Assembly: GCA_002687015.1 (NCBI GenBank)
Contig: NYZB01000239.1
Span: 2,657-66,656 of the forward strand
Reading direction: 5' to 3'
Length of the DNA stretch: 64,000 bases
Origin: Deltaproteobacteria bacterium
Lineage (GTDB): Bacteria > Myxococcota_A > UBA9160 > UBA6930
Notes under the pieces: model-generated
The model's input: only the letters and a program-made list of their open reading frames with translations
What the model was told of the DNA's origin: nothing
Databases searched by the model: none
Part shown: in pieces, positions 1 to 57,766 of the stretch
Position numbering within the stretch: position 1 is the stretch's first letter
Layout of the letters: every line of letters starts with the position of its first letter
Made by a program: the position numbers and the translations under genes

Positions 1-260
1 GCCGCCCAGGGCCACATCCACGCGCGCATCTGCCACAGGCCGACGGTGCCCGCCGCGTACACGAACCAGTGCGGGATCTCGAGGACCTTCGCCCAGGTGC
101 CGTGGAAGCGGACCCCGAACCAGACCTCCTCGTCGATGGCCGCGGGCTTCACGAAGAGATCCCAGGGCATGTAGACGAAGGCCATGAAGGCGGTGAAGAG
201 GAGCAGCAGGTTCATCCAGCCGGGGCGACGACCGAGCTGGTGGCGGATCCACTCTCCCAT
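1..260 (-). CDS. hypothetical membrane protein (N-terminal part; gene runs off the left edge)
   Basis: Not in the ORF track because it is edge-truncated. Reverse-strand ATG at 260-258 is preceded by GAGGAGG. Translation MGEWIRHQLGRRPGWMNLLLLFTAFMAFVYMPWDLFVKPAAIDEEVWFGVRF has a hydrophobic helix and strong GC3 bias. Confidence 0.4.
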   Translation of the reverse strand, partial: MGEWIRHQLGRRPGWMNLLLLFTAFMAFVYMPWDLFVKPAAIDEEVWFGVRFHGTWAKVLEIPHWFVYAAGTVGLWQMRAWMWPWA

Positions 261-300
261 GGCTGCCTCCTCACCCGGAAAGGTAGCCCGCCTGCGTGCC

Positions 301-750
301 TCAGGGTTGCGTCGGCAGTTGCTCGAGAAGGCGGGCGCGTAGGGCCTCCACCTCAGTCAATGGCGGCCGTCGCACGCGGGTGACCTCCGCAGTGGTGTAG
401 GGCGCGGCAGCGTGGGCGTGCTCCGCGGGCCCGAAGGTCTGCACCATCCAGTTGAGTACCGCGGCGAGCTCGGAGTCGGTGAGGTTCGAGCCAGACGCGC
501 CGGGCACGCGAACCAGGTACTCGCGACCGCCGGGCACCGAGAGGAAGCGGGCGACCGAGCCGACCAGGTTGGGAACGCCCGACCGGGGAGCACCGCTGCC
601 GTCTGCCTGATGACAGCCCTGGCATTGGAGCATCCAGTCGACGCGAGGCTCGTTGGACGGCCGAGCCCCGGCCTCGTCGGTGGCCCAGGCTGCCGAAGCC
701 GCGAACAGCACCAGCAGGATCGGCGCCAGGGAGTTGCAGGAAGCGCTCAT
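301..750 (-). CDS. monoheme c-type cytochrome, periplasmic
   Basis: ORF 301..825 trimmed to the ATG at 750. Signal peptide MSASCNSLAPILLVLFAASAAWA. Single CQGCH heme motif. The ATG overlaps the mauA stop (ATGA). Confidence 0.8.
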   Translation of the reverse strand: MSASCNSLAPILLVLFAASAAWATDEAGARPSNEPRVDWMLQCQGCHQADGSGAPRSGVPNLVGSVARFLSVPGGREYLVRVPGASGSNLTDSELAAVLNWMVQTFGPAEHAHAAAPYTTAEVTRVRRPPLTEVEALRARLLEQLPTQP

Positions 751-1274
751 CCCTTCTTCGTCGACGTCCCCACGACGATCGCGACCGTCGAGTTGTAGAT
801 GACGCTCGAGGTCCCCATGCACCAATCGATGTCGTTGTTCTTGTGGGTGTAGTAGATCGGCTTGTCACCTTCGGTGCGTCGACAGAAGCAGCGGCCACAG
901 ACCTCCTTGCCACAGCAATCGTTGTACGAGATCACGTACTCGGTGCCGTCCACGGGGTTGCGGCAGGTGCCGAGCCAGGTGATCGGGGACATCTCGGTGC
1001 CGGGGGGGCAAGCGGTATGGGTGCCTCCGCAGCAGCTGGCCAGGAAGCCGTCGATGGCGCAGTAGCGCCAGTAGTCGCAGCCCTCCGGGTCGCCCTCGGG
1101 CTTGTCGGGATGGGGCTCGCCCGGCGCCCCCTGGGCCGAGGCGCGAGAGATCGGCAGGAGCGGCGTCGCACCACCGCCGACCAGGACCGCGCCGATCCCC
1201 GCCAGGAAGCCCCGCCGCGACGTGCGTCGCGCGACGGCACGAGTGAGATCGCTGACCCAGTCATCCATGTTCAT
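747..1274 (-). CDS. mauA: methylamine/aromatic amine dehydrogenase light (TTQ-bearing) subunit
   Basis: ORF 747..1448 trimmed to MNMDDW. Tat-type signal RRTSRRGFLAGIG. Cys-rich core CDYWRYCAIDGFLASCCGG...ITWLGTC...DCCGK...IDWCMG matches MauA, including both TTQ Trp contexts. Confidence 0.9.
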   Translation of the reverse strand: MNMDDWVSDLTRAVARRTSRRGFLAGIGAVLVGGGATPLLPISRASAQGAPGEPHPDKPEGDPEGCDYWRYCAIDGFLASCCGGTHTACPPGTEMSPITWLGTCRNPVDGTEYVISYNDCCGKEVCGRCFCRRTEGDKPIYYTHKNNDIDWCMGTSSVIYNSTVAIVVGTSTKKG

Positions 1275-1335
1275 GGGGTCTTTGCCTTCCCGTTGTGGCG
1301 AAGAGAGCGCACCTCGCTTCTGGAGTCGCTTGCCA

Positions 1336-1944
1336 TCAGGCGACCTCGCGGCCGGGGTTGCTGGAGACGTATTCCTGGAGGGAGGCGACGCCGCGGTCGC
1401 GGGCCTCGAAGAGGCTCTCGAGGTGCTCGCGCTGGTTGACCAGGCCACGCGCCTTCACGACGCCGTCGGCACCAATGAGCACGGCGTAGGGCAACCGGCC
1501 GACCTGATAGGCCATGCCCAGCGGCGCCGACAAGACGTAGGTCTCGCTCTCCAGGTCGTGGGCCTCGACGAAGGGCTCGTGCTCCTCCCGTTCGCCGTCG
1601 CTGGCGACGACCAGACGGAGCTTCGGGCCCTCGGCATCGCGCACCGAGCGCACGGTCGGAAGCAGGGTCTTGCAGACCGGGCAGGTGGGAGACACGAAGA
1701 AGAGTAGGGTCTCCGCACCCTCGGGGTCGGGGCCGCCGATGCGCAGCGTCTCGCCGTGCCACGCGGTCGTCTCGAGGACCGGCGTCTCCTCACCGACCGC
1801 TGGCTTCTCGCCTCCCACGAGGGCCCCGGCGGGCGCGATGCGCTCGTGGAGGACGCCCACCTGGCGCAGCAGGGCCAGCACCACCCCGGCCAACAGGATG
1901 ACGACGGCCCAGAGCACGAGGTTCGAGACGACCAGCGGCTCCAT
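1336..1944 (-). CDS. mauD: methylamine utilization protein MauD (thioredoxin-like, CPVC)
   Basis: ORF 1336..2310 trimmed to MEPLVVSNLVLWAVVILLAG (TM anchor). Thioredoxin-fold motif FFVSPTCPVCK. The start overlaps the mauE stop. Confidence 0.85.
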   Translation of the reverse strand: MEPLVVSNLVLWAVVILLAGVVLALLRQVGVLHERIAPAGALVGGEKPAVGEETPVLETTAWHGETLRIGGPDPEGAETLLFFVSPTCPVCKTLLPTVRSVRDAEGPKLRLVVASDGEREEHEPFVEAHDLESETYVLSAPLGMAYQVGRLPYAVLIGADGVVKARGLVNQREHLESLFEARDRGVASLQEYVSSNPGREVA

Positions 1945-2477
1945 CACGCGCCTCCCCAGAGGAGGCGCTGCCGTGAGGCGTTGGCGAGGGCCACGTCGAT
2001 GGCCGTGTAGAGGAGGGCTGCGGCCAGCGTCGCCACCGCGAGATGGAAGGAGTCGAGGGCCGTCCAGCCTCGCGCGACGACGGGAGCCGTGCTCAGGAGG
2101 AGGAGTGCGGCGAGCACGAGGTTGCGCACCACCAGCGAGAGGCCGAGGGGCCGGCTGCCCCCCGGTCCCCCACAGCCGCAGTCGATCCCGGCGCGGCCGC
2201 GCAGGAGGTTGATCGCGATGGCCGCGGCGTAGGTGGCGAGAAGCGCTGCGCCCGCCCACGCGGCCGACGCCGAGTAGAGCAGCGCCGAGGCCAGCCCGAG
2301 CTCGAGCCACGGCATCGTCCGCGCGGCGGGGCGGGCCCAGCTCGCCGGAAGCAGACGATAGCCCGCCAGTGCGGATTGGAAGGATGCCCGACCGCGCAGC
2401 TTGTGCGCGGCCGCGGCGGCAAAGAGAAGGGCGCCCCCCACGCGCAGGAGGTGGTGGATCAGCGGATCGACACTCAC
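1944..2477 (-). CDS. mauE: methylamine utilization membrane protein MauE
   Basis: 177-aa polytopic membrane protein containing GIDCGCGG. It sits between the heavy subunit and mauD. GTGA overlap with the mauB stop. Confidence 0.8.
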   Translation of the reverse strand: MSVDPLIHHLLRVGGALLFAAAAAHKLRGRASFQSALAGYRLLPASWARPAARTMPWLELGLASALLYSASAAWAGAALLATYAAAIAINLLRGRAGIDCGCGGPGGSRPLGLSLVVRNLVLAALLLLSTAPVVARGWTALDSFHLAVATLAAALLYTAIDVALANASRQRLLWGGA

Positions 2478-3751
2478 GGCGCCTGGCCGCCGAAGGGCGC
2501 GATCAGGCCCACGTTCGTCATGTTGCCGCTGTAGATGCGCCGCAGGAAGTCGCCCGTGAGCGCGTCGTAGAGCGCGATTCCACCGCCGAAGTTCGAGGTG
2601 ACCGCCAGGAGGGGGGTCTCATCCTGGGTGGCGCGGATCTCGTCACCTCCCATGGCCGAGCCGATGGCGTTGACGATCCCCGAGGCGATCGAGCTGAGCG
2701 GCCAGATCCAATCCTCGGGCACCTCGATGGGGAAGCCCATGATCGTGAGGCCCGGGCTCTCCAGCTCGATGCGCTGCAGGAGCTTGCGGCCGGCGAGGTC
2801 GTAGACCCAGACCTCGCTTCCCGACTCCTTGTGGGTGTCGACGCCGCCCTGGTGCATCAGCGCGAAGAGCCGGCCGCTCTTGCGGTGAAGGGCCAGGTGC
2901 TGCGCGCCGCCGATCCTCCACTCGTCGCTTCGCTGGCCGTCGTCGAAGAGCGACCAGGGCTCGGCGAAGGCCGGAACCTCGCCGGAGAGGTCGACCTCGT
3001 GCAGGTATCCTTCGAACGAGGCAAAGAGCCAGCGATCGCCGATCCGGACGCCCTTCTCGGTGATCGGATCGACCTGGGGGTCGAAGAAGGGCGCGCTGCG
3101 CTTCCGCGAGGCCTCGCCACCCCCTTCGTCGAGTGCGATCACGAGCAGGGCGCCGTCCAGACAGAGCATGGCGATGCGGCGGCCGCTGACGGCATAGACC
3201 AGGCTGCAGCCGGGCGTGGCGATCTCGCCGGCCAGACGCCGCTCGGCGAGATCGACCACGCTGATCGAGGCGGCGGGCGTCAGGTTGAAGACGACGGCGA
3301 AGCGCTCGTCGTCGGTGAGCGTCGCGTGGTTCGAGGGCACCGCGCTGATGGCCCGCTTCGGCGGCAGCACGACCTCCGCCGTCGGCGCGAGTGTGCGCAT
3401 GTCGTAGAGGGTGAGCACGTCCGTTCGCTCGCCCCGGCTCCCGCGCGAGTAGTGGGTCTCCGCGACCATCACCTCGCCACGGCCGGCCGCGAGCATCGGC
3501 ATGATCGGCCCGAAGCCTGCGGAGACCATGCCCAGCGTCTTGCCGCGATCGAGATCCACGAGGGTCGAGCGGCGCAGGAGCGGATCGGCCACCCAGGCCC
3601 AATGGGGCGCCGGCGCGGGCAGGGTCACGACCTGGCCAGTGCTCTCGACGGGCAGCTCGGCTCGGGCCGGCACGGGGCCCAAGAGGCCGAGGAGGAGGAG
3701 CGAGGCCACCAGGATCGAGCCGAAGGGGCGATCTTGCACCGCTGTACTCAA
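2474..3751 (-). CDS. mauB: methylamine/aromatic amine dehydrogenase heavy subunit (beta-propeller)
   Basis: 425-aa ORF with a signal peptide and propeller-like repeats (AETHYSRGSRGERTDVLTLYD, HLALHRKSGRLFALMHQGG). Position is directly upstream of mauE-D-A. Start could be TTG 3751 or GTG 3739. Confidence 0.85.
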   Translation of the reverse strand: MSTAVQDRPFGSILVASLLLLGLLGPVPARAELPVESTGQVVTLPAPAPHWAWVADPLLRRSTLVDLDRGKTLGMVSAGFGPIMPMLAAGRGEVMVAETHYSRGSRGERTDVLTLYDMRTLAPTAEVVLPPKRAISAVPSNHATLTDDERFAVVFNLTPAASISVVDLAERRLAGEIATPGCSLVYAVSGRRIAMLCLDGALLVIALDEGGGEASRKRSAPFFDPQVDPITEKGVRIGDRWLFASFEGYLHEVDLSGEVPAFAEPWSLFDDGQRSDEWRIGGAQHLALHRKSGRLFALMHQGGVDTHKESGSEVWVYDLAGRKLLQRIELESPGLTIMGFPIEVPEDWIWPLSSIASGIVNAIGSAMGGDEIRATQDETPLLAVTSNFGGGIALYDALTGDFLRRIYSGNMTNVGLIAPFGGQAP

Positions 3752-12074: not shown

Positions 12075-12623
12075 TCAGCCCCGGGTCTCCCGGATCCGGA
12101 AGACGTCGTGGCCCGTCGGGCCTCCGCGGGGCTCGTGCTCGATCTCGATCGTGGTTCCGAAGCGCGTGGCCAGGCCGTGGAAGAGGCCTGCGACCATGGG
12201 GGCCAGGCCGAGGCGCTCCGAGCTGTAGTGGACCTCGTAGAGGCCCTCTCTCTCGACCTTGCAGACGAAGCTCGGCGGGCGCAGCTCGGGGAAGATGCCG
12301 CCCAGGCGGGTGTGCAGCGCATCGAGCTGCTGGAGGAACTCGGCGAGGGTGGCACCGGTGAGCTCGAGCAGGTCGCCGTAGCCCTCGCGGGTGGCGAAAT
12401 CGACCCACGACTCGCCGAGCTGGAAGAGCAGCTCGTCGGCCGGGACGCCTGTCTGGTTGGACGCAGTGCCGATCAGGTCGAAGCTGAGCTGGTCGGGATA
12501 GGGCTCCATCGTCACGAAGTCCTGCAGGTCGGGATCGACCTCGTCGCGCACGCGGCGCCAGAGGGGCTCGCCGAAGCGGTCGACGAGCAGCCGCTCGATC
12601 GCGCGGTTCACGAGCCCGTACAT
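12075..12623 (-). CDS. H-NOX (heme nitric oxide/oxygen-binding) sensor protein
   Basis: Starts MYGLVNRAIERLL, the canonical H-NOX N-terminus. Proximal-His context QLDALHTRLGGIFPELRPPSF. YxSxR heme-propionate motif present (HYSSER). Confidence 0.9.
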   Translation of the reverse strand: MYGLVNRAIERLLVDRFGEPLWRRVRDEVDPDLQDFVTMEPYPDQLSFDLIGTASNQTGVPADELLFQLGESWVDFATREGYGDLLELTGATLAEFLQQLDALHTRLGGIFPELRPPSFVCKVEREGLYEVHYSSERLGLAPMVAGLFHGLATRFGTTIEIEHEPRGGPTGHDVFRIRETRG

Positions 12624-13816
12624 TCGACCTCCGCGCTGGCGCGGCCGATCGCGCCGAGCAGCGCCTCGCTGCCGAAGGGCTTGTGGAGGAAGAGCGCACG
12701 CGGGTCGCCCTGCAGGAGCTCGGCCACGCGCTCCCCCGTGTAGCCGCTCATCAGGACGATGGGCAGGAAGGGGAGCTTCTCGCGCAGGGCGCGGTAGACG
12801 TGGTCGCCGGTCATGCCGGGCATCGAGAGATCGAGCAGGACGCAGGTGAGCTCGTGGCCGATCTCGCGGCACAGCGCCAGGGCACCCTTGCCGTCGGCGA
12901 CCGCGACCACCTCGAAGCCCTTGCGCTCGAGCATGCGCCCCGTGGTGGCGCGCACGCGGGGGTCGTCGTCGACGAGGAGCACGCGGCCGCGGACCGCCGG
13001 CAGGGCTGCACGCGGTGCCACAGGCTCTCGTGCCTCGGCCTCCTGGGGCGCCAGCGGGAAGAGCACCCGGATCTTCGTGCCCCGGCCGGGCTCGCTGGTG
13101 ACGCACACCACCCCCTCGTGCCGGCGCACGATGCCGAAGACCACCGCCATGCCCAGGCCGCGGCCCAGCAGCTTGGTCGAGAAGAAGGGATCGAAGACCC
13201 GCTCGAGGACCTCGGCCTCCATGCCCGGTCCGTTGTCCTCGACCTCCAGGTAGGCGTAGGAGGCCGTTGCATCGAGCTCACCGATCACGAGCGCCTCGGC
13301 CCTGGTCTCACCCGGCCGCTGCTCCCCCGTGCGCAGCACCACGCGGCCGCCCTCGGCCCCGCAGGCCTCGCTGGCGTTGAGCACCAGGTTCAGGAGCACC
13401 TGCCGTACCTGCGTGGGGTCGGCCCGCAGCCCCCCGGGCGTGGGCCCCAGCTCGAAGCGCACGGCCATGCCCTGGGTGCTGGCCCGCACGAGCTCGCGCA
13501 TGTCATCGATCAGCGAGTCGAGGGCCAGCGCCTCGAGCCGCACCGGCGTGCGCCCCGCGTAGGAGAGCATCTGCTGGCACAGGTCGGTGGCGATGCCCGC
13601 GGCCTGGAGGATGTCGTCGGCGGTGCGCTGCGTGTCCTCGTCGGGGCAATCCTCGCGCAGGAGCTCCGCACCCGCGACGATGGGCACCAGCAGGTTGTTG
13701 AAGTCGTGCGCCACGCCGCCGGCCAGGACGCCCAGGCTCTCGAGCCGCTCGGCCTCCTTGACCCGCTGCTCGAGGTGGGCGCGCTCGTCCCGCCCGCGGC
13801 GCACCTCTTCCATTTC
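12608..13816 (-). CDS. hybrid histidine kinase, 3' fragment (DHp-HATPase-receiver) of an IS-split gene
   Basis: Sequence MEEVRRGRDERAHLEQRVKEAERLESLGVLAGGVAHDFNNLL carries the H-box. Also has the N/G boxes (LNLVLNASEA, DNGPGM, GRGLGM) and a C-terminal REC domain (VLLVDDD...LDLSMPGMTG). The ATG lies inside the IS target duplication. Confidence 0.85.
   Translation of the reverse strand, partial: EMEEVRRGRDERAHLEQRVKEAERLESLGVLAGGVAHDFNNLLVPIVAGAELLREDCPDEDTQRTADDILQAAGIATDLCQQMLSYAGRTPVRLEALALDSLIDDMRELVRASTQGMAVRFELGPTPGGLRADPTQVRQVLLNLVLNASEACGAEGGRVVLRTGEQRPGETRAEALVIGELDATASYAYLEVEDNGPGMEAEVLERVFDPFFSTKLLGRGLGMAVVFGIVRRHEGVVCVTSEPGRGTKIRVLFPLAPQEAEAREPVAPRAALPAVRGRVLLVDDDPRVRATTGRMLERKGFEVVAVADGKGALALCREIGHELTCVLLDLSMPGMTGDHVYRALREKLPFLPIVLMSGYTGERVAELLQGDPRALFLHKPFGSEALLGAIGRASAEVECTGS
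13808..13816. repeat. target-site duplication, left copy (TTCCATTTC)
   Basis: Identical 9-mer at 15033-15041, directly abutting the IS inverted repeats. Confidence 0.8.
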
Positions 13817-15032
13817 GGTTGTGTTCCGAAGATTGTGGCCCGTGGGCGAGAAGGGATGAGCCCGCGGTAGGTTGCAGCGGTTTCACCCGACGAAGCGCCG
13901 TTGCGGCGGCTGGGCGCAGCGGCGCGCGCGGGTCGGGACCTTCCCTTCGTAGTAGGGGCGCCATCGCGCGGGGAGGGCGACGCGGGTCGGAAAGCGCCGC
14001 TTCGCCAGGATCTCCGGGGTCGTCAGCCGGTGGTCCGTGAGGCCCAGGACCTGGGCCGGGGTCTCGTCGCGCCGCTTCTCGCTGCGTGACTTCTGGTAGT
14101 TCACCCACACCGCGAAGATCGCCACCCGCTCCATCGCGCTCTGGCGGCGCTTCGAGAACGCGATCGTCTCGCGCTTGTGGTTCGCTCCCCCGTGGCGAAG
14201 GAGAAGATCCATCCGGTTGACCGGGAAGAGTGGGTTGGCGGTGGTCCGGGCTCGCTTCGAGGAGGTCACGCGGTGGCGCACCCGCACGCCGTCGACCCGG
14301 GAGAAGCCTCGCGGATAGGCCGGATGCTCATCCGTCCGCAGCTCCACGTAGGCCCCGGGAGCCGCTACGAGGCCGAGGAGGGCGGCCATCTCCCGCTCGA
14401 GGGCCTTGGGGTCGGGCCGGCCATGGCGACGCTCGAGCTCTGCGCGTCGCTCCTTCTGGCCTCGGGTCATGCGGCCCTTGCGCCGCAGCTCGGCATCGGT
14501 GAAGGCGTAGAGGAAGTGGCTCTCGGCACCCACGGCCAGGTTGGCGTGGAAGGGGTAGTACTGGGAGTGCTCGAAGGTCTCGAAGCCGTCGAGGGCCAGG
14601 GGCTCAGAGGGGGGCCCCGGGGGCCGATGGTCCTGCAGGAAGAGCAGAGCCTGGCGTCCCAGCCGGGTCGTGTGGGTCTGGACGGTCGAGGGCGAGACGC
14701 CCTGGGCGCGGGCGATCTGCCGGAAGCCCGAGCAGGCGACCAGGCCCTCGTAGACGGCCGAGAGCAGCGCGGGCCGACGCAGCCAGTAGGTGACCGAGAA
14801 GGTCTGTGAACTGAAGGTGCGACGGCAATGGGAACAGCGGTACCGCTGGATCCGGCGGGGGACCGCGTGTCGCCGGTAGAAGCCGTGGCGCAGGGCGCGC
14901 CAACCCCGCGGATCCCCATGGAAAGGGCAGCTCGGGTTGGGACAGTGGGGAGGTTCGAAGCCAGCGCGGCGGCCCGTCATGCCCTCCCAGCACCGCAAGC
15001 CCCGTGCCATCCACATTCGTCGGGACACAACC
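13817..15032 (-). mobile_element. IS1-family-like insertion sequence (single-ORF type), 1216 bp
   Basis: Terminal inverted repeats GGTTGTGTTCCGAAGATTG (13817-13835) and rc GGTTGTGTCCCGACGAATG (15014-15032) match at 16 of 19 positions. Ends fit GGnnnTG. 9-bp TSD. One transposase ORF nearly fills the element. Confidence 0.8.
13883..15028 (-). CDS. IS1/IS1595-like DDE transposase with N-terminal zinc ribbon and HTH
   Basis: Zinc-ribbon motif CPNPSCPFHG...YRCSHCRRTFS. HTH-like FRQIARAQGVSPSTVQ. Candidate DDE residues in LALDGFETF, ELRTDEHPAY and HKRETIAF. The true start may be an internal Met. Confidence 0.7.
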   Translation of the reverse strand: MSRRMWMARGLRCWEGMTGRRAGFEPPHCPNPSCPFHGDPRGWRALRHGFYRRHAVPRRIQRYRCSHCRRTFSSQTFSVTYWLRRPALLSAVYEGLVACSGFRQIARAQGVSPSTVQTHTTRLGRQALLFLQDHRPPGPPSEPLALDGFETFEHSQYYPFHANLAVGAESHFLYAFTDAELRRKGRMTRGQKERRAELERRHGRPDPKALEREMAALLGLVAAPGAYVELRTDEHPAYPRGFSRVDGVRVRHRVTSSKRARTTANPLFPVNRMDLLLRHGGANHKRETIAFSKRRQSAMERVAIFAVWVNYQKSRSEKRRDETPAQVLGLTDHRLTTPEILAKRRFPTRVALPARWRPYYEGKVPTRARRCAQPPQRRFVG

Positions 15033-15041
15033 TTCCATTTC
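15033..15041. repeat. target-site duplication, right copy (TTCCATTTC)
   Basis: Identical to 13808-13816. Confidence 0.8.
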
Positions 15042-15575
15042 TTCTTGCAGCCGCTCGTTGACCACGCGCAGCTCGCGCTTCTGGTCCGCCAGCTGCTTGG
15101 AGAAGCGCCGCGCCTCGGCCAGCGAGGTGCTCTGGCCCTGCATCGCGAACAGGTGGTCGGGCACGGATTCGTAGGGCGGAAAGTCCGCCAGCCCGAGCCC
15201 CATGCGCCGCAGCTCGTCCAGGCTGTGGACGAGGATCGTGGTGAGCAGGAAGACGACCCCGCGCGAGGGGACCGCCTGGGCCCGCAGCCGCACCGGCCGG
15301 GCGCGGCACTCGATCAAGAGCGGCCGGTTCTCGAGCCCGGCCGGGTCGAAGCGCGAGAGCAGGGGCCGCAGGAACCGGAAGTGGTCGTCGAAGGCCGCGC
15401 CGACGCGCAGCTCCGGGTCCAGCCGCTCCCAGGCCCGCCCGAGCTGGAGGATCTCCCCATCGGGCGAGACCCCCACATGAAAGGGAATCACCGCGCACAG
15501 CACTTCCGGGTCGAGCGTGAAACCGCTCTCCCCTGCGTTCCGCTCGAACTCTGCGGACACGATCCCCCCGAACAC
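15033..15575 (-). pseudogene. 5' fragment of the IS-split kinase: HNOBA/PAS-like domain plus coiled coil
   Basis: The first 181 codons of ORF 14604..15575 (GTG start) resemble sGC beta1 (FPFHIIFD...[23 protein letters not shown]): IPFHVGVSPDGEILQLG...LDELRRMGLGLADFPPYESVPDHLFAMQGQ...KRELRVVNERLQEEME. After EEME the frame reads into IS sequence. Confidence 0.75.
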
Positions 15576-15627
15576 CTGGCGCGACCGACCGGAAAGTAAC
15601 CAGCGTTTGGGGGATCTGGGATCGGGG

Positions 15628-15654
15628 AAGACCTGATGCCGGGCATCGGGTCTT
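15628..15654 (-). terminator. near-perfect 27-nt palindrome/hairpin (terminator of the upstream operon, or an operator)
   Basis: AAGACCTGATGCC-G-GGCATCGGGTCTT lies 32 nt downstream of the 15686 stop and 53-79 nt upstream of the 15575 start. No U-tract. Confidence 0.3.
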
Positions 15655-15685
15655 ACCCTGACTTCTCAACGAGGTCCGAAGAGCG

Positions 15686-16594
15686 TCACGACCCGCGTCG
15701 GAGGGCGATGCCGTGCTTCTCGACCAGGCGGTAGATGGAGGCGCGGCTCCGGCCCATCCGGGCGGCCGTCTCGGCGACGTTGCCGCCGGTGGCATCGAGA
15801 AGCTCCAGCAGCTCGCGACGCTCGGCGAGCTGCTGCCTCTCCCGCAGGTCGGCCACCGAAGGCCGCAGCTCTTCGAGCACGGCCTCCACTTCCCTAAGAC
15901 CGATCCGGGGAGCCGGCGTGAAGGCGATCAACCGCTCGACGACGCGACGAAGCTCGTGAAGATTGCCGGGCCAACGCTCGCGACCCAGGCGACGAAGGGC
16001 ACCGTCGGTGAAGCTCGCTTCGGTTCGGCCGAGCTCGGCTCCGACCTCGCGGGCCAGATGGGAGACGAGCTCCGGCAGGTCTTCCATGCGCTCTCGCAAG
16101 GAAGGCAGGCGGACCTCGAAGCGGGTCAGGAGGCGCGCGAGGGTCGCATCGAAGGAGCCCGACGTGATCGCATCGAAGAGGGTGGGGCTTGCGGAGGCGA
16201 GGATCCGGGCCTCGCTGCGGGTGCCTTCGATCAGCGGCAGCCACCGGGCCTGGGCCTCGTCGGAGAGGCTCTCCAGGCCCATGAGGAAGAGGGTGCCGCG
16301 AAGCGGGATCGCCTCGAGAGCGCGCCCTTCCCGGGCATCCACCTGGACGAAGGGTGCTCCGGGGTGGAGGCCCTGCTCGTGGAGGAAGTGCGCGGCCCTC
16401 CATCGACCCGTCCCGGGCTCGCCCGCCAGAAGGACGGGAGCGCAGAGTGGCGCCAGACCCCAGAGCCACTCCCGAACCCGATGGATGACGGCGCTGCTCC
16501 CGACCAGGGGGGCGCCCGGCCCGGGTGCGTCGCGTCGAAGCGCCCCCTCAGCGACCGGTTCCACTCGAGCTGCGTGTGCGCTGCGGGAATCCAA
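15686..16594 (-). CDS. degenerate sigma-54-activator-like (AAA+ remnant) regulator with Fis-type HTH
   Basis: Has LLAGEPGTGRWRAA (Walker A Lys replaced), TLFLMGLESL (Walker B DE lost), no GAFTGA loop, WPGNLHEL, and the C-terminal HTH GGNVAETAARMGRSRASIYRLVEK. Confidence 0.8.
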   Translation of the reverse strand: MDSRSAHAARVEPVAEGALRRDAPGPGAPLVGSSAVIHRVREWLWGLAPLCAPVLLAGEPGTGRWRAAHFLHEQGLHPGAPFVQVDAREGRALEAIPLRGTLFLMGLESLSDEAQARWLPLIEGTRSEARILASASPTLFDAITSGSFDATLARLLTRFEVRLPSLRERMEDLPELVSHLAREVGAELGRTEASFTDGALRRLGRERWPGNLHELRRVVERLIAFTPAPRIGLREVEAVLEELRPSVADLRERQQLAERRELLELLDATGGNVAETAARMGRSRASIYRLVEKHGIALRRGS

Positions 16595-16699
16595 GGGCTA
16601 CGCCTCCATTCAGGGGTCGGGTCTACGGCGACAGACTACGGCGCAGCCCTGGGCCTCGAAGCCGGAGAAAGAGCGGGAAAGCGTCAAAGATCGCCAAGA

Positions 16700-17917
16700 T
16701 CAGGTCGAGAGGCCGTGCTTCTTGAGCCGGTAGGCGACGGCACCGCGTGTCACCCCCATCCGACGACTCATCTCCGCCACGTTGCCACCGCACTCCGCCA
16801 GTAGCGCCACCAGCTCCTCGCGTTCGGCGTGGTACCGGGCGAGCCGGCGTTTCACGAGGCCGTCGTTTCGCTCGGCGACCATCAGGCCGATCGACTCCTC
16901 GACACGAGCGCGTGTCAGGAAGCCCCCTCCCGAGAGCGCCACCGCCTTTTCCATGACATCGGCGAGATCGGTCACGTTCCCGGGCCACGAATGGGACGCA
17001 AGGGCGTCCAGAGCATCGTCGGAGACCCGCACGGGGTGGCATCCGAGCTCTCGCGCGGCCTCCTGGGCCAGGCTCGCGGCCAGGGCGCCCAGATCCCCGA
17101 GGCGGTCGCGGAGAGCAGGGAGCGCCACGACGCAGCTCGTGAGCTCCTTCCAGAATCGCGGAGGAATGGAGCCCTGCGATCCACCGCAGGTCGCGAAGAT
17201 GCGCTGGACCGGGGAGCTACCTCCACGGACTCGATGCAGCTCGGTGTGCCACATTCTCTGATCACGAGCCGAGAAGCGATCGAGCTCTCGCAGCACCACC
17301 TCGCAGCGGATCGTCGGAATCGATGCGTCGTCGCCGTCGGTCACCTGCAGAGGCAGCTCCGGCGCGCTCAGCTCGTGCAGGACGCGGGCCGCGCGGCAGC
17401 GCCCGCTTCCGCGCTCGCCTTCGATCACGACGGGGGAGCGCAGCCGTGCGAACATGCGAAGGCGCCGCTGCGCCTCCACCACCAGCTCGGAGCTTCCATC
17501 GAGCAGTGCATCCGCGGCGTCGGCGGTCGCGATCCCCCGCCGGCCGAGCAGCTCGAGGACCACGTCTGGGAGCCTCTCGAGATCGTCGGGAAAACGCAGG
17601 TAGTCGTCGGCCCCGCTGCGCATGGCCGAGACGGCGGCAGGGATCTCCGCGTGAGCCGTGAGCAGCACGACCGGGACGCTCGACACGCCTCGAATGCGTC
17701 GCAGGAGGTCGAATCCGTCGGTCGAAGGCATGCGGACGTCCGAAACGACGAGGTCGGGCTCCTCGTCCTGGAAGACGAGCCATGCTTCGGCGCCGTCGGT
17801 TGCGGTCAAGACCCTGCATTCGGGGCCGACCAGCTCGTCGGCAATGACGGAGAGCGCGTCCTCGCAATCGTCGACCACGAGGAGCGTCGCGACGGCCTCT
17901 TGCGCCTCAACCGCCAT
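16700..17917 (-). CDS. response regulator: receiver + degenerate sigma-54-activator-like AAA+ remnant + Fis-type HTH
   Basis: REC domain (LLVVDDCED...DLVVSDVRMP...LLTAH). Central region IEGERGSGRCRAAR, VVLRELD, no GAFTGA, WPGNVTDL. HTH GGNVAEMSRRMGVTRGAVAYRLKK. Confidence 0.85.
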   Translation of the reverse strand: MAVEAQEAVATLLVVDDCEDALSVIADELVGPECRVLTATDGAEAWLVFQDEEPDLVVSDVRMPSTDGFDLLRRIRGVSSVPVVLLTAHAEIPAAVSAMRSGADDYLRFPDDLERLPDVVLELLGRRGIATADAADALLDGSSELVVEAQRRLRMFARLRSPVVIEGERGSGRCRAARVLHELSAPELPLQVTDGDDASIPTIRCEVVLRELDRFSARDQRMWHTELHRVRGGSSPVQRIFATCGGSQGSIPPRFWKELTSCVVALPALRDRLGDLGALAASLAQEAARELGCHPVRVSDDALDALASHSWPGNVTDLADVMEKAVALSGGGFLTRARVEESIGLMVAERNDGLVKRRLARYHAEREELVALLAECGGNVAEMSRRMGVTRGAVAYRLKKHGLST

Positions 17918-56531: not shown

Positions 56532-57766
56532 GCGGGGAGCTGCGCGTCGCCTATCTCGTGAGTCGCTATCCGGCGCTCTCCCACGTGTTCATCCGGCGCG
56601 AGATCGAGGCCCTGCGGCGCCTCGGCGTCGTCGTGGAGACGGCCAGCTTGCGAACACCCTCGGAGGCCGAGCTCCTCACCGAGGCCGACCGCCTCGAGCG
56701 GGCCAGCACCTACTACATCCAGCCCGTACGACCGCTCGCGCTGCTCCGAGAGCATCTCCTGATCGGTCTCGGCTCACCGCTCCGATACCTGCAGACCCTG
56801 CACAAGGCACTGCTGCATCGCCGGGCGGGAGCCAGGGGGCTGCTCTGGGCCTTGTTCCATTTCGCCGAGGCGATCCAGCTGGCCGCCGAGCTGGGCCGAC
56901 GCGGCGTCGAGCACATCCACTCCCACTTCGCGAACGCGGGCGGCACCGTCGGCCTGCTCGCGAGCGAGGTGCTGGGCGTGGGATGGAGCGTCACCCTGCA
57001 CGGGCTCTCGGACTTCGGGGATCCGGAGGGACAGCGGCTGGCCGAGAAGATCGGGGAAGCCCGCTTCGTCGCCTGCGTCTCGGAGCATGGCCGCGCGCAG
57101 GCACTTCGGTTCGGTGGCCCCGCCGCGGCGGGACACACCCACGTCGTGCGCTGCGGGCTCCCGGCGAACGCGTTTCGGGATCGCGCCAGGGGAGACGAAG
57201 CGGGAGAGGGCACCGACCCCCTGCGCATCATCTGCGTCGGTCGCCTGGCGCCGGAGAAGGGGCACCTGGGTCTGCTGGAGGCCCTCGCATCGGCACGCAG
57301 CGATGGACTGGAAGCACGGCTGACTCTCGTGGGCGAGGGCCCGGAGAGGCCGGAGATCGAGGCGAGGATCGCTGCCCTCGGGATCGGCGAGCACGTCGAC
57401 CTTCCGGGTGCGCTGGCGGGACCTGCCCTGCGGGATCGGCTCGCGGATTCCGACCTCTTCGTTCTCTCGAGCTTCATGGAAGGCCTGCCCGTCACCCTCA
57501 TGGAGGCCCTGGCCGTGGGAACGCCGGCCGTGGTCCCGGGGCTGTCGGGAATCCCCGAGCTCGTGCGCCAGGATGAAGAGGGCTGGCTCTACACGGCGGG
57601 GCGCTTCGACAGCCTGGCCGACGCCCTGCTGCGCGCGGGCAAGGAGCGGGGTGTCCTCGCTGCCATGGGGGAACGCGGCCGCGAACGCGTGCGCCAGCTC
57701 CACGACATCGACGAGCAGGCGGCCACGCTCCGTGGCCTGCTCGCCGCCGCCGCCGGCCGCGGGTAG
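56528..57766 (+). CDS. glycosyltransferase family 4
   Basis: ATG 56528 (ATGA overlap). Contains RIICVGRLAPEKG and FVLSSFMEGLPVTLMEALAVGTPAV (E-x7-E region). Confidence 0.85.
   Translation: MSGELRVAYLVSRYPALSHVFIRREIEALRRLGVVVETASLRTPSEAELLTEADRLERASTYYIQPVRPLALLREHLLIGLGSPLRYLQTLHKALLHRRAGARGLLWALFHFAEAIQLAAELGRRGVEHIHSHFANAGGTVGLLASEVLGVGWSVTLHGLSDFGDPEGQRLAEKIGEARFVACVSEHGRAQALRFGGPAAAGHTHVVRCGLPANAFRDRARGDEAGEGTDPLRIICVGRLAPEKGHLGLLEALASARSDGLEARLTLVGEGPERPEIEARIAALGIGEHVDLPGALAGPALRDRLADSDLFVLSSFMEGLPVTLMEALAVGTPAVVPGLSGIPELVRQDEEGWLYTAGRFDSLADALLRAGKERGVLAAMGERGRERVRQLHDIDEQAATLRGLLAAAAGRG

Follow-up and report, generated by a model that had tools for sequence, protein, structure and literature searches.

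The stretch of DNA considered here, referred to throughout as the window, comprises 64,000 nucleotides of contig NYZB01000239.1 (assembly GCA_002687015.1, Deltaproteobacteria bacterium); all coordinates follow its numbering. On its minus strand a gene for a histidine kinase with an H-NOBA sensor domain and a receiver is interrupted by a complete insertion sequence (IS), and the kinase gene is directly upstream of, and probably co-transcribed with, a gene for H-NOX. An earlier note on this DNA had described the insertion as an IS1-family element and had proposed that the duplicated target sequence furnishes the severed catalytic half of the kinase with a start codon. The reading put forward here, which we hold with considerable confidence, is that an IS1-like element with a single open reading frame (ORF) transposed into the signalling-helix codons of the H-NOBA-kinase-receiver gene and disrupted it. 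The features on which this reading is based are the following.

13817..15032, minus strand: insertion sequence, complete; delimited by inverted repeats and a target duplication; in a second, 100% identical copy the flanking sequence departs from that of the window at just these two positions
15008..15032, minus strand: left inverted repeat, at the transposase start side; minus strand GGTTGTGTCCCGACGAATGTGGATG, with a GGnnnTG end common to relatives in other genomes
13817..13841, plus strand: right inverted repeat, past the transposase stop; GGTTGTGTTCCGAAGATTGTGGCCC
13808..13816, no strand assigned: target-site duplication, copy beside the C-terminal kinase fragment; TTCCATTTC, coding strand GAA-ATG-GAA
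15033..15041, no strand assigned: target-site duplication, copy ending the N-terminal kinase fragment; TTCCATTTC
13883..14980, minus strand: transposase, 365 aa (P0001, MAE96764.1); zinc finger, helix-turn-helix (HTH) and RNase H-fold core, from homologs of about 365 aa and an AlphaFold2 model
15033..15575, minus strand: N-terminal kinase fragment, 181 codons; H-NOBA/H-NOXA PAS-like domain (Pfam HNOBA, 2.6e-12) and first part of the signalling helix
12608..13807, minus strand: C-terminal kinase fragment, 399 codons; rest of the signalling helix, DHp (HisKA), HATPase_c and receiver, from Pfam and colinear alignment
12075..12623, minus strand: H-NOX (HNOB) gene, 182 aa (Pfam HNOB, 3e-43); downstream of the insertion, same operon

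The element occupies 1216 bp and has a G+C content of 70%, the same as its host. Its inverted repeats, GGTTGTGTTCCGAAGATTG and GGTTGTGTCCCGACGAATG, match at 16 of 19 positions, or at 21 of 25 if the following TGTGG is included, and GGTTGTG is the end sequence at both termini. A degenerate pattern drawn from the inverted repeats occurs at two sites only in the 64-kb window, which are the two ends of the element (chance expectation 0.05), and the probability that an exact 9-mer should stand by chance at both exact flanks is about 4^-9. The length, the 16/19 repeats, the GGnnnTG ends and the perfect 9-bp repeat of the earlier note were all reproduced on the sequence. A third occurrence of TTCCATTTC, at 56855-56863, was considered as a related site and rejected as a chance occurrence, there being no inverted repeat nearby.

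Deletion of the element together with one copy of the repeat restores, as had been claimed, a continuous frame, a single ORF of 580 codons reading ...NERLQEEMEEVRRGRDERAHLEQRVKEAERLESLG..., and the restored protein has full-length relatives of 571 aa, which are 59-60% identical to it and share the same four domains (HNOBA-HisKA-HATPase-REC). The alignment is free of gaps across the junction, where NERLQEEME-EVRRGRDE faces NERLRHEMA-EVQRARDE, NERLAAEME-AVQQARDE and NLRLEAEMA-EVHRARSE in the orthologs P0122, P0123 and P0124; the earlier note had made its reading depend on precisely this colinearity of orthologous kinases. An intact syntenic ortholog is found in a related genome, in which a 5.83-Mb contig (locus L085, with P0123) has genes for an MMPL transporter, a sigma54-type activator-like protein (302 aa), the intact kinase (571 aa), H-NOX (182 aa) and an acyl-CoA dehydrogenase, an order closely matching that of the window. 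The combination of H-NOBA domain, signalling helix, HisKA-HATPase and receiver with an adjacent H-NOX gene, by which H-NOX-associated H-NOBA kinases are recognised, is thus present at the locus.

One question then is where in the protein the insertion falls. The signalling helix links sensor domains to the DHp domain, according to the S-helix concept (PMC2828450, citing Anantharaman et al. 2006). In the AlphaFold model of the intact ortholog P0122 (predicted local distance difference test score, pLDDT, 77) one continuous helix extends over residues 127-223, that is 97 residues, and includes the phospho-acceptor histidine at 204; the insertion corresponds approximately to residues 168-170, some 40 residues after the start of the helix and 35 before the histidine. 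The statement that the element cuts exactly at the junction between coiled coil and DHp is not borne out, since the model places the site in mid-helix and has no discrete junction there.

Further copies of the element in public assemblies

An identical transposase is encoded on further public contigs (L001-L004), and these bear both on the nature of the 9-mer and on the reality of the insertion. L002 represents a different locus, adjoining selB, where the element is 100% identical and the flank ends in TATCCCTTC directly before GGTTGTG; at this second site the termini of the element are the same and the 9-bp duplication, TATCCCTTC, is a different one. Since identical termini are here accompanied by another 9-mer, the 9-mer is a target duplication and not a part of the element, and the test that the earlier note had proposed for this distinction is decided in its favour. 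The element is present in the population in at least two identical copies.

Apart from the window, three public assemblies contain the kinase::IS junction itself. L001 is an independent 44.8-kb assembly of the same kinase locus, in which both junctions are present with a perfect 9-bp duplication; L003, from another assembly, has the same kinase site and breaks off at the far end of the element, 66 nt beyond the transposase gene; and L004 has the junction on its left side. The flank of L004, compared with window 15031-15826, shows 3 differences in 798 positions. The insertion is young, as the earlier note had gathered from the intact repeats and the full-length transposase ORF, with a perfect duplication, two 100% identical copies and an intact transposase, yet it is not a one-off event, the interrupted allele being present in several assemblies.

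L004 (European Nucleotide Archive contig ERZ17293550, positions 1-3078) is a hybrid, in which the left flank of the kinase site is joined through the element to the right flank of the selB-side site, the latter beginning ACACAACC followed directly by TATCCCTTC. It may be either an assembly chimera across a 1.2-kb repeat or a real recombinant between two identical copies and, if the recombination is real, it would mean an inversion or a deletion in that population.

The hybrid contig indicates that the data contain chimeras induced by repeats, or else IS-IS recombinants, and it could be argued on this ground that repeat mis-assembly spliced the element into the kinase and that the real genome has an intact gene. 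We regard this as extremely improbable, given that the window and the independent L001 alike have both junctions and the perfect 9-bp duplication, that L003 has the same kinase site, and that a 9-bp stretch of unique target sequence cannot be doubled by mis-assembly. An intact allele is, moreover, absent from the databases searched: no conspecific intact kinase was found in a protein database search, and two exact-match scans of metagenome contigs of the Joint Genome Institute found no empty, uninterrupted site.

Probable kinship of the transposase with IS1

The longest frame of the transposase ORF, at 13883-15028 on the minus strand, is single and uninterrupted and would allow a GTG at 15028 as an alternative start; however, since the relatives are almost all 365 aa long, the real start is probably the ATG at 14980, which is preceded by GGGAGGG. 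The protein begins with a four-cysteine zinc finger (C13, C18, C49, C52), continues with an HTH at approximately 72-117 and has a core containing D131, D217 and N255/D258. The AlphaFold model (pLDDT 88; predicted template modelling score, pTM, 0.88) has an RNase H-type core with strands at 128-135, 144-151, 157-164, 211-216 and 233-238 and a helix at 252-263, and the top matches of this model among PDB structures in a Foldseek search are retroviral integrases and the DDE transposases of ISCth4 and Mu; a sequence search of the PDB with the transposase returned noise only.

Conservation was assessed in 85 diverse members of the clade, 27-54% identical. C13, C18, C49, C52, D131, D217, R262 and N294 are invariant in all 85. 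The position aligned to the catalytic glutamate of IS1 is N255, which is asparagine in 72 members, aspartate in 12 and threonine in one, and seven residues further on stands the invariant R262 (residues 255-262 lie at about 14195-14218 of the window, minus strand). Residue 258, three after 255, is aspartate in 59 of the 85 and histidine in the other 26, and 14 members have neither acid. E271 is kept in 75/85 and lies in a low-confidence loop of the model. The asparagine in the third catalytic place poses a minor question of mechanism.

To which family the element belongs is less readily settled by curated models. A Pfam scan of the transposase gave no catalytic-domain family and a weak match to HTH_38 only, and no Pfam DDE family, DDE_Tnp_IS1 included, rose above noise in 48 plus 85 clade members; Pfam HTH_Tnp_IS1 matches 6 of the 85. 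The top NCBIfam match is the ISL3 model (33 bits against a cut-off of 180, 3.5e-8), confined to the N-terminal 107 residues, and the NCBIfam IS1/IS1595 zinc domain and residues 16-83 of the IS1 model were also matched below cut-off. Over the 85 members the IS1 model of NCBIfam was matched weakly by 75 (best 1.5e-11), the ISL3 model by 56 (best 3.4e-8) and the full IS1595 model by none. More distant comparison was made with the InsAB' protein of E. coli, rebuilt from the IS1A sequence and 100% identical to the RefSeq copies. Aligned to it by hhalign, the clade profile gives a probability of 94.8-96.3% and E values of 5e-8 to 1.5e-9 over 185-188 columns, the alignment running from the zinc finger through the catalytic core to the FSK motif, whereas the control against the IS26 transposase reaches 6.4%.

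The resemblances to IS1 extend from the DNA to the protein. IS1 has a target duplication of 8 or 9 bp, and its architecture has been described (PMC12428005). The ends read GGTGATG in IS1A and GGTTGTG here; both proteins have a zinc finger and then an HTH, and the core motifs (QRYLCSHCRKTW in IS1, QRYRCSHCRRTF here) are almost identical; and the catalytic motifs follow in the same order, with the second aspartate in 'TD..P.Y', a helix with arginine seven past the third position, and 'FSK'. The GGnnnTG ends are a signature of the IS1 family. The differences are equally plain. IS1 measures 768 bp against 1216 bp here; it produces a 232-aa protein from insA and insB by a -1 frameshift, where the present element has one ORF of 365 aa and no separate InsA repressor is evident; its catalytic spacing is D-56-D-24-E as against D-85-D-37-N; and the present protein is extended at its C-terminus by some 85 aa and has asparagine or aspartate in place of the IS1 glutamate. 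ISfinder admits single-ORF members to IS1, so that the lack of a frameshift does not by itself exclude membership, and its single-ORF subgroups, among them that of ISMhu11, have a long single ORF, a larger element, ends of IS1 type and duplications of up to 9-10 bp. A full-text literature search for ISMhu11 returned nothing.

It is conceivable that the element is not IS1 at all, and represents instead either a zinc-finger DDE neighbour in the vicinity of ISL3 and IS1595 or a separate family sharing with IS1 the N-terminal DNA-binding module only. The slight lead of the ISL3 model (3.5e-8, N-terminal) over the IS1 model (5.6e-7), the failure of any member to match DDE_Tnp_IS1, a protein of 365 aa and thus much longer than the 232-aa InsAB', and the asparagine with arginine at +7 all point in this direction; 'DDNK' catalytic variants are known in the IS1595 family, and the arrangement here recalls them. 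The match to InsAB', on the other hand, does not stop at the N-terminus but extends through the catalytic core to the FSK motif, and across the clade the IS1 model is matched more often than that of ISL3, and the full IS1595 model never. Both ISL3 and IS1595 are set apart by 8-bp duplications and ends of the GGCTCTT type, while the 9-bp duplication and GGnnnTG ends found here are as in IS1. We therefore consider a position outside IS1 unlikely. In favour of the family assignment in the earlier note are the GGnnnTG ends, the duplication within the 8-9 bp range, the zinc finger and HTH of InsA type and the remote homology to InsB (hhalign 96%); against it are the failure to match the curated catalytic-domain models, the single ORF in place of insA and insB frames joined by a programmed -1 frameshift, and the asparagine at the position aligned to the glutamate. 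To judge from these comparisons, IS1 appears to be the nearest known family and the element a distant relative within an IS1 superfamily, belonging to a clade uncurated in Pfam and NCBIfam.

Probable consequences for the kinase and the H-NOX gene

By homology with IS1, the transposase would bind the GGTTGTG... ends through its zinc finger and HTH, and D131, D217 and a third residue on the helix 252-263 (N255 or D258) would perform Mg-dependent cleavage and strand transfer within the RNase H fold. The transposition left the 9-bp duplication from a staggered cut that is typical of the clade, and the kinase gene is split into a sensor-side fragment of 181 codons extended by 142 element codons and a catalytic fragment of 399 codons. 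The ORF of the sensor-side fragment, at 14604-15575, does run from the 181 kinase codons through 142 codons of the element to a stop (323 aa in all), in agreement with the earlier note that it reads on into the element. The catalytic fragment retains complete DHp, HATPase and receiver domains according to Pfam and alignment, as had been stated, its phospho-acceptor histidine being placed 35 residues past the junction.

The earlier note went further and envisaged that the insertion makes a sensor-less kinase, uncoupled from H-NOX and started from the duplicated ATG, by means of element-borne transcription or of read-through. On the coding strand the duplicated 9-mer indeed reads GAA-ATG-GAA with the ATG in frame, and gene callers choose this ATG (13813) as the start of the annotated 401-aa protein P0121; the fragment also keeps about 35 residues of helix before the histidine in addition to its complete domains, and the transposase gene is co-directional with the interrupted kinase gene, with no terminator-like site between the transposase gene and the fragment. 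Against this, orthologs carry E-M-[AE] at the same place, so that the methionine codon is native and conserved; the ATG was copied rather than created by the duplication, and nothing was 'designed' by the insertion event. Upstream of the ATG lies the end of the element, ...CTTCGGAACACAACCGAA, in which no Shine-Dalgarno sequence is found, the pairing with the anti-Shine-Dalgarno sequence amounting to -3.5 kcal/mol, which is background, as compared with -9 to -11 kcal/mol for the H-NOX, sigma54-like and MMPL genes. Neither a sigma-70-like promoter nor, on the coding (minus) strand, a terminator-like site was found in a scan of 13500-15700, the sigma-70 consensus being weak evidence in an uncultured organism of 70% G+C. 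With the ATG 3 nt from the element end, an outward promoter would have to produce an mRNA with hardly any leader, and the local sequence is unlike a -10 box; the helix that drives signalling through the DHp dimer has, in the model, lost half its length. A functional sensor-less kinase is for these reasons a proposal to which we attach very little probability. The fragment could be expressed only by read-through from upstream, starting at the promoter of the kinase or of the transposase; the sequence offers no argument for this and gives no indication that the fragment is translated efficiently.

The transposase stop codon, a TGA at 13883-13885, is in frame with the ATG of the catalytic fragment, 23 sense codons lying between them on the minus strand, and readthrough at this stop would yield a transposase-kinase fusion. 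Such an in-frame arrangement has a chance of one in three and is probably a coincidence; the fusion was rejected as a candidate, the N-terminal fragment being in another frame and nothing pointing to readthrough of the TGA. A wider proposal, in which a large IS1-superfamily clade unrecognised by public databases and having a D-D-N (arginine at +7) or D-D-D site is combined with a kinase fragment made by read-through or by TGA readthrough and signalling independently of H-NOX, strikes us as improbable.

Returning to the disruption of the kinase gene by an IS1-like element, a few points count against this reading or lessen its force. The NCBIfam IS1 model (NF033558) is matched at 29.7 bits against a cut-off of 100 (5.6e-7), and by the N-terminal part only. 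The ancestral state of the gene is that suggested by orthologs at 59-60% identity rather than by a conspecific. The kinase allele would be null, with loss of function, because the dimeric signalling helix between sensor and DHp is broken and the catalytic half is without translation signals of its own; several apparently real genes of the window, however, also have no Shine-Dalgarno match, and some expression of the catalytic fragment is possible.

There is a 16-nt overlap between the H-NOX gene and the kinase stop, and H-NOX is served by a GGAGG Shine-Dalgarno sequence of its own; as no terminator was seen, H-NOX expression would now depend on read-through across the element. The event is most likely a routine and recent IS knock-out of a signalling gene in a metagenome-assembled genome (MAG), and the population is probably defective, at most, in one two-component pathway responsive to H-NOX and nitric oxide. 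The insertion also explains the odd look of the annotated 401-aa 'kinase' (CL910_19110) and of the neighbouring 'hypothetical protein' (CL910_19115).

Neighbouring genes and extent of the clade

The locus may be compared with that of the H-NOXA kinase of Nostoc punctiforme (2P04/2P08), which it resembles in the H-NOXA/H-NOBA PAS-like domain and in the adjacent partner H-NOX gene; the N-terminal fragment matches PDB entry 2P04, the H-NOXA domain of the Nostoc histidine kinase, at 4e-11. Here, this domain is followed by the signalling helix, the histidine-kinase core and the receiver. Unlike the Nostoc system, the kinase is interrupted, the host is an uncultured marine 'Deltaproteobacteria'/Myxococcota-like MAG, and the operon adds two genes of the sigma54-activator type. 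The latter lie directly upstream of the kinase (15686-17917, minus strand), one encoding a protein of 405 aa with a receiver domain and the other a protein of 302 aa with neither a receiver nor a recognised HTH, and this association with the H-NOBA kinase and H-NOX is kept in L085. A role as output regulators of the pathway is possible.

The clade to which the transposase belongs is large. In an exhaustive profile search it came to 2,373 clusters at 50% identity. Relatives clustered at 90% number more than 3,300 and carry the names 'hypothetical' or 'transposase-like'. Species-representative genomes contain at least 531 loci of the clade, of which the best 80 (L005-L084) were listed; all of these 80 are in MAGs or assemblies of uncultured bacteria, labelled mainly as Myxococcota/'Deltaproteobacteria' and Eisenbacteria, with some Gemmatimonadota, Spirochaetaceae and unclassified bins, and 13 of them belong to the single Myxococcota MAG BC2.74 (JAWKRX01). 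Searches of 72,556 plasmids of cultured bacteria with the element and the transposase (blastn and tblastn) gave no match. The clade is present in multiple copies in several MAGs of Myxococcota, Eisenbacteria and Gemmatimonadota, and many contigs end exactly at an element of the clade, which makes it a frequent cause of assembly breaks.

A very abundant transposase clade is invisible to the Pfam and NCBI naming models, and its ends, the length of its duplication and its profile homology connect it with IS1; the link would allow IS annotation tools to flag thousands of clade genes and the associated assembly breaks in MAGs. That this very large IS1-like clade is unrecognised by current protein-family resources is the sole mildly novel point of the analysis. 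The ends of the relatives read GGTTGTG, GGACGTG or AGACGTG and, with the ends set at GGTTGTG or RGACGTG, exact 9-bp flanking repeats were found in 20 of the 55 related loci with recognisable repeats, all 20 differing in sequence. The mean G+C content of the duplicated 9-mers is about 50%, in genomes of approximately 65-70%, which suggests that the clade mildly prefers AT-richer targets.

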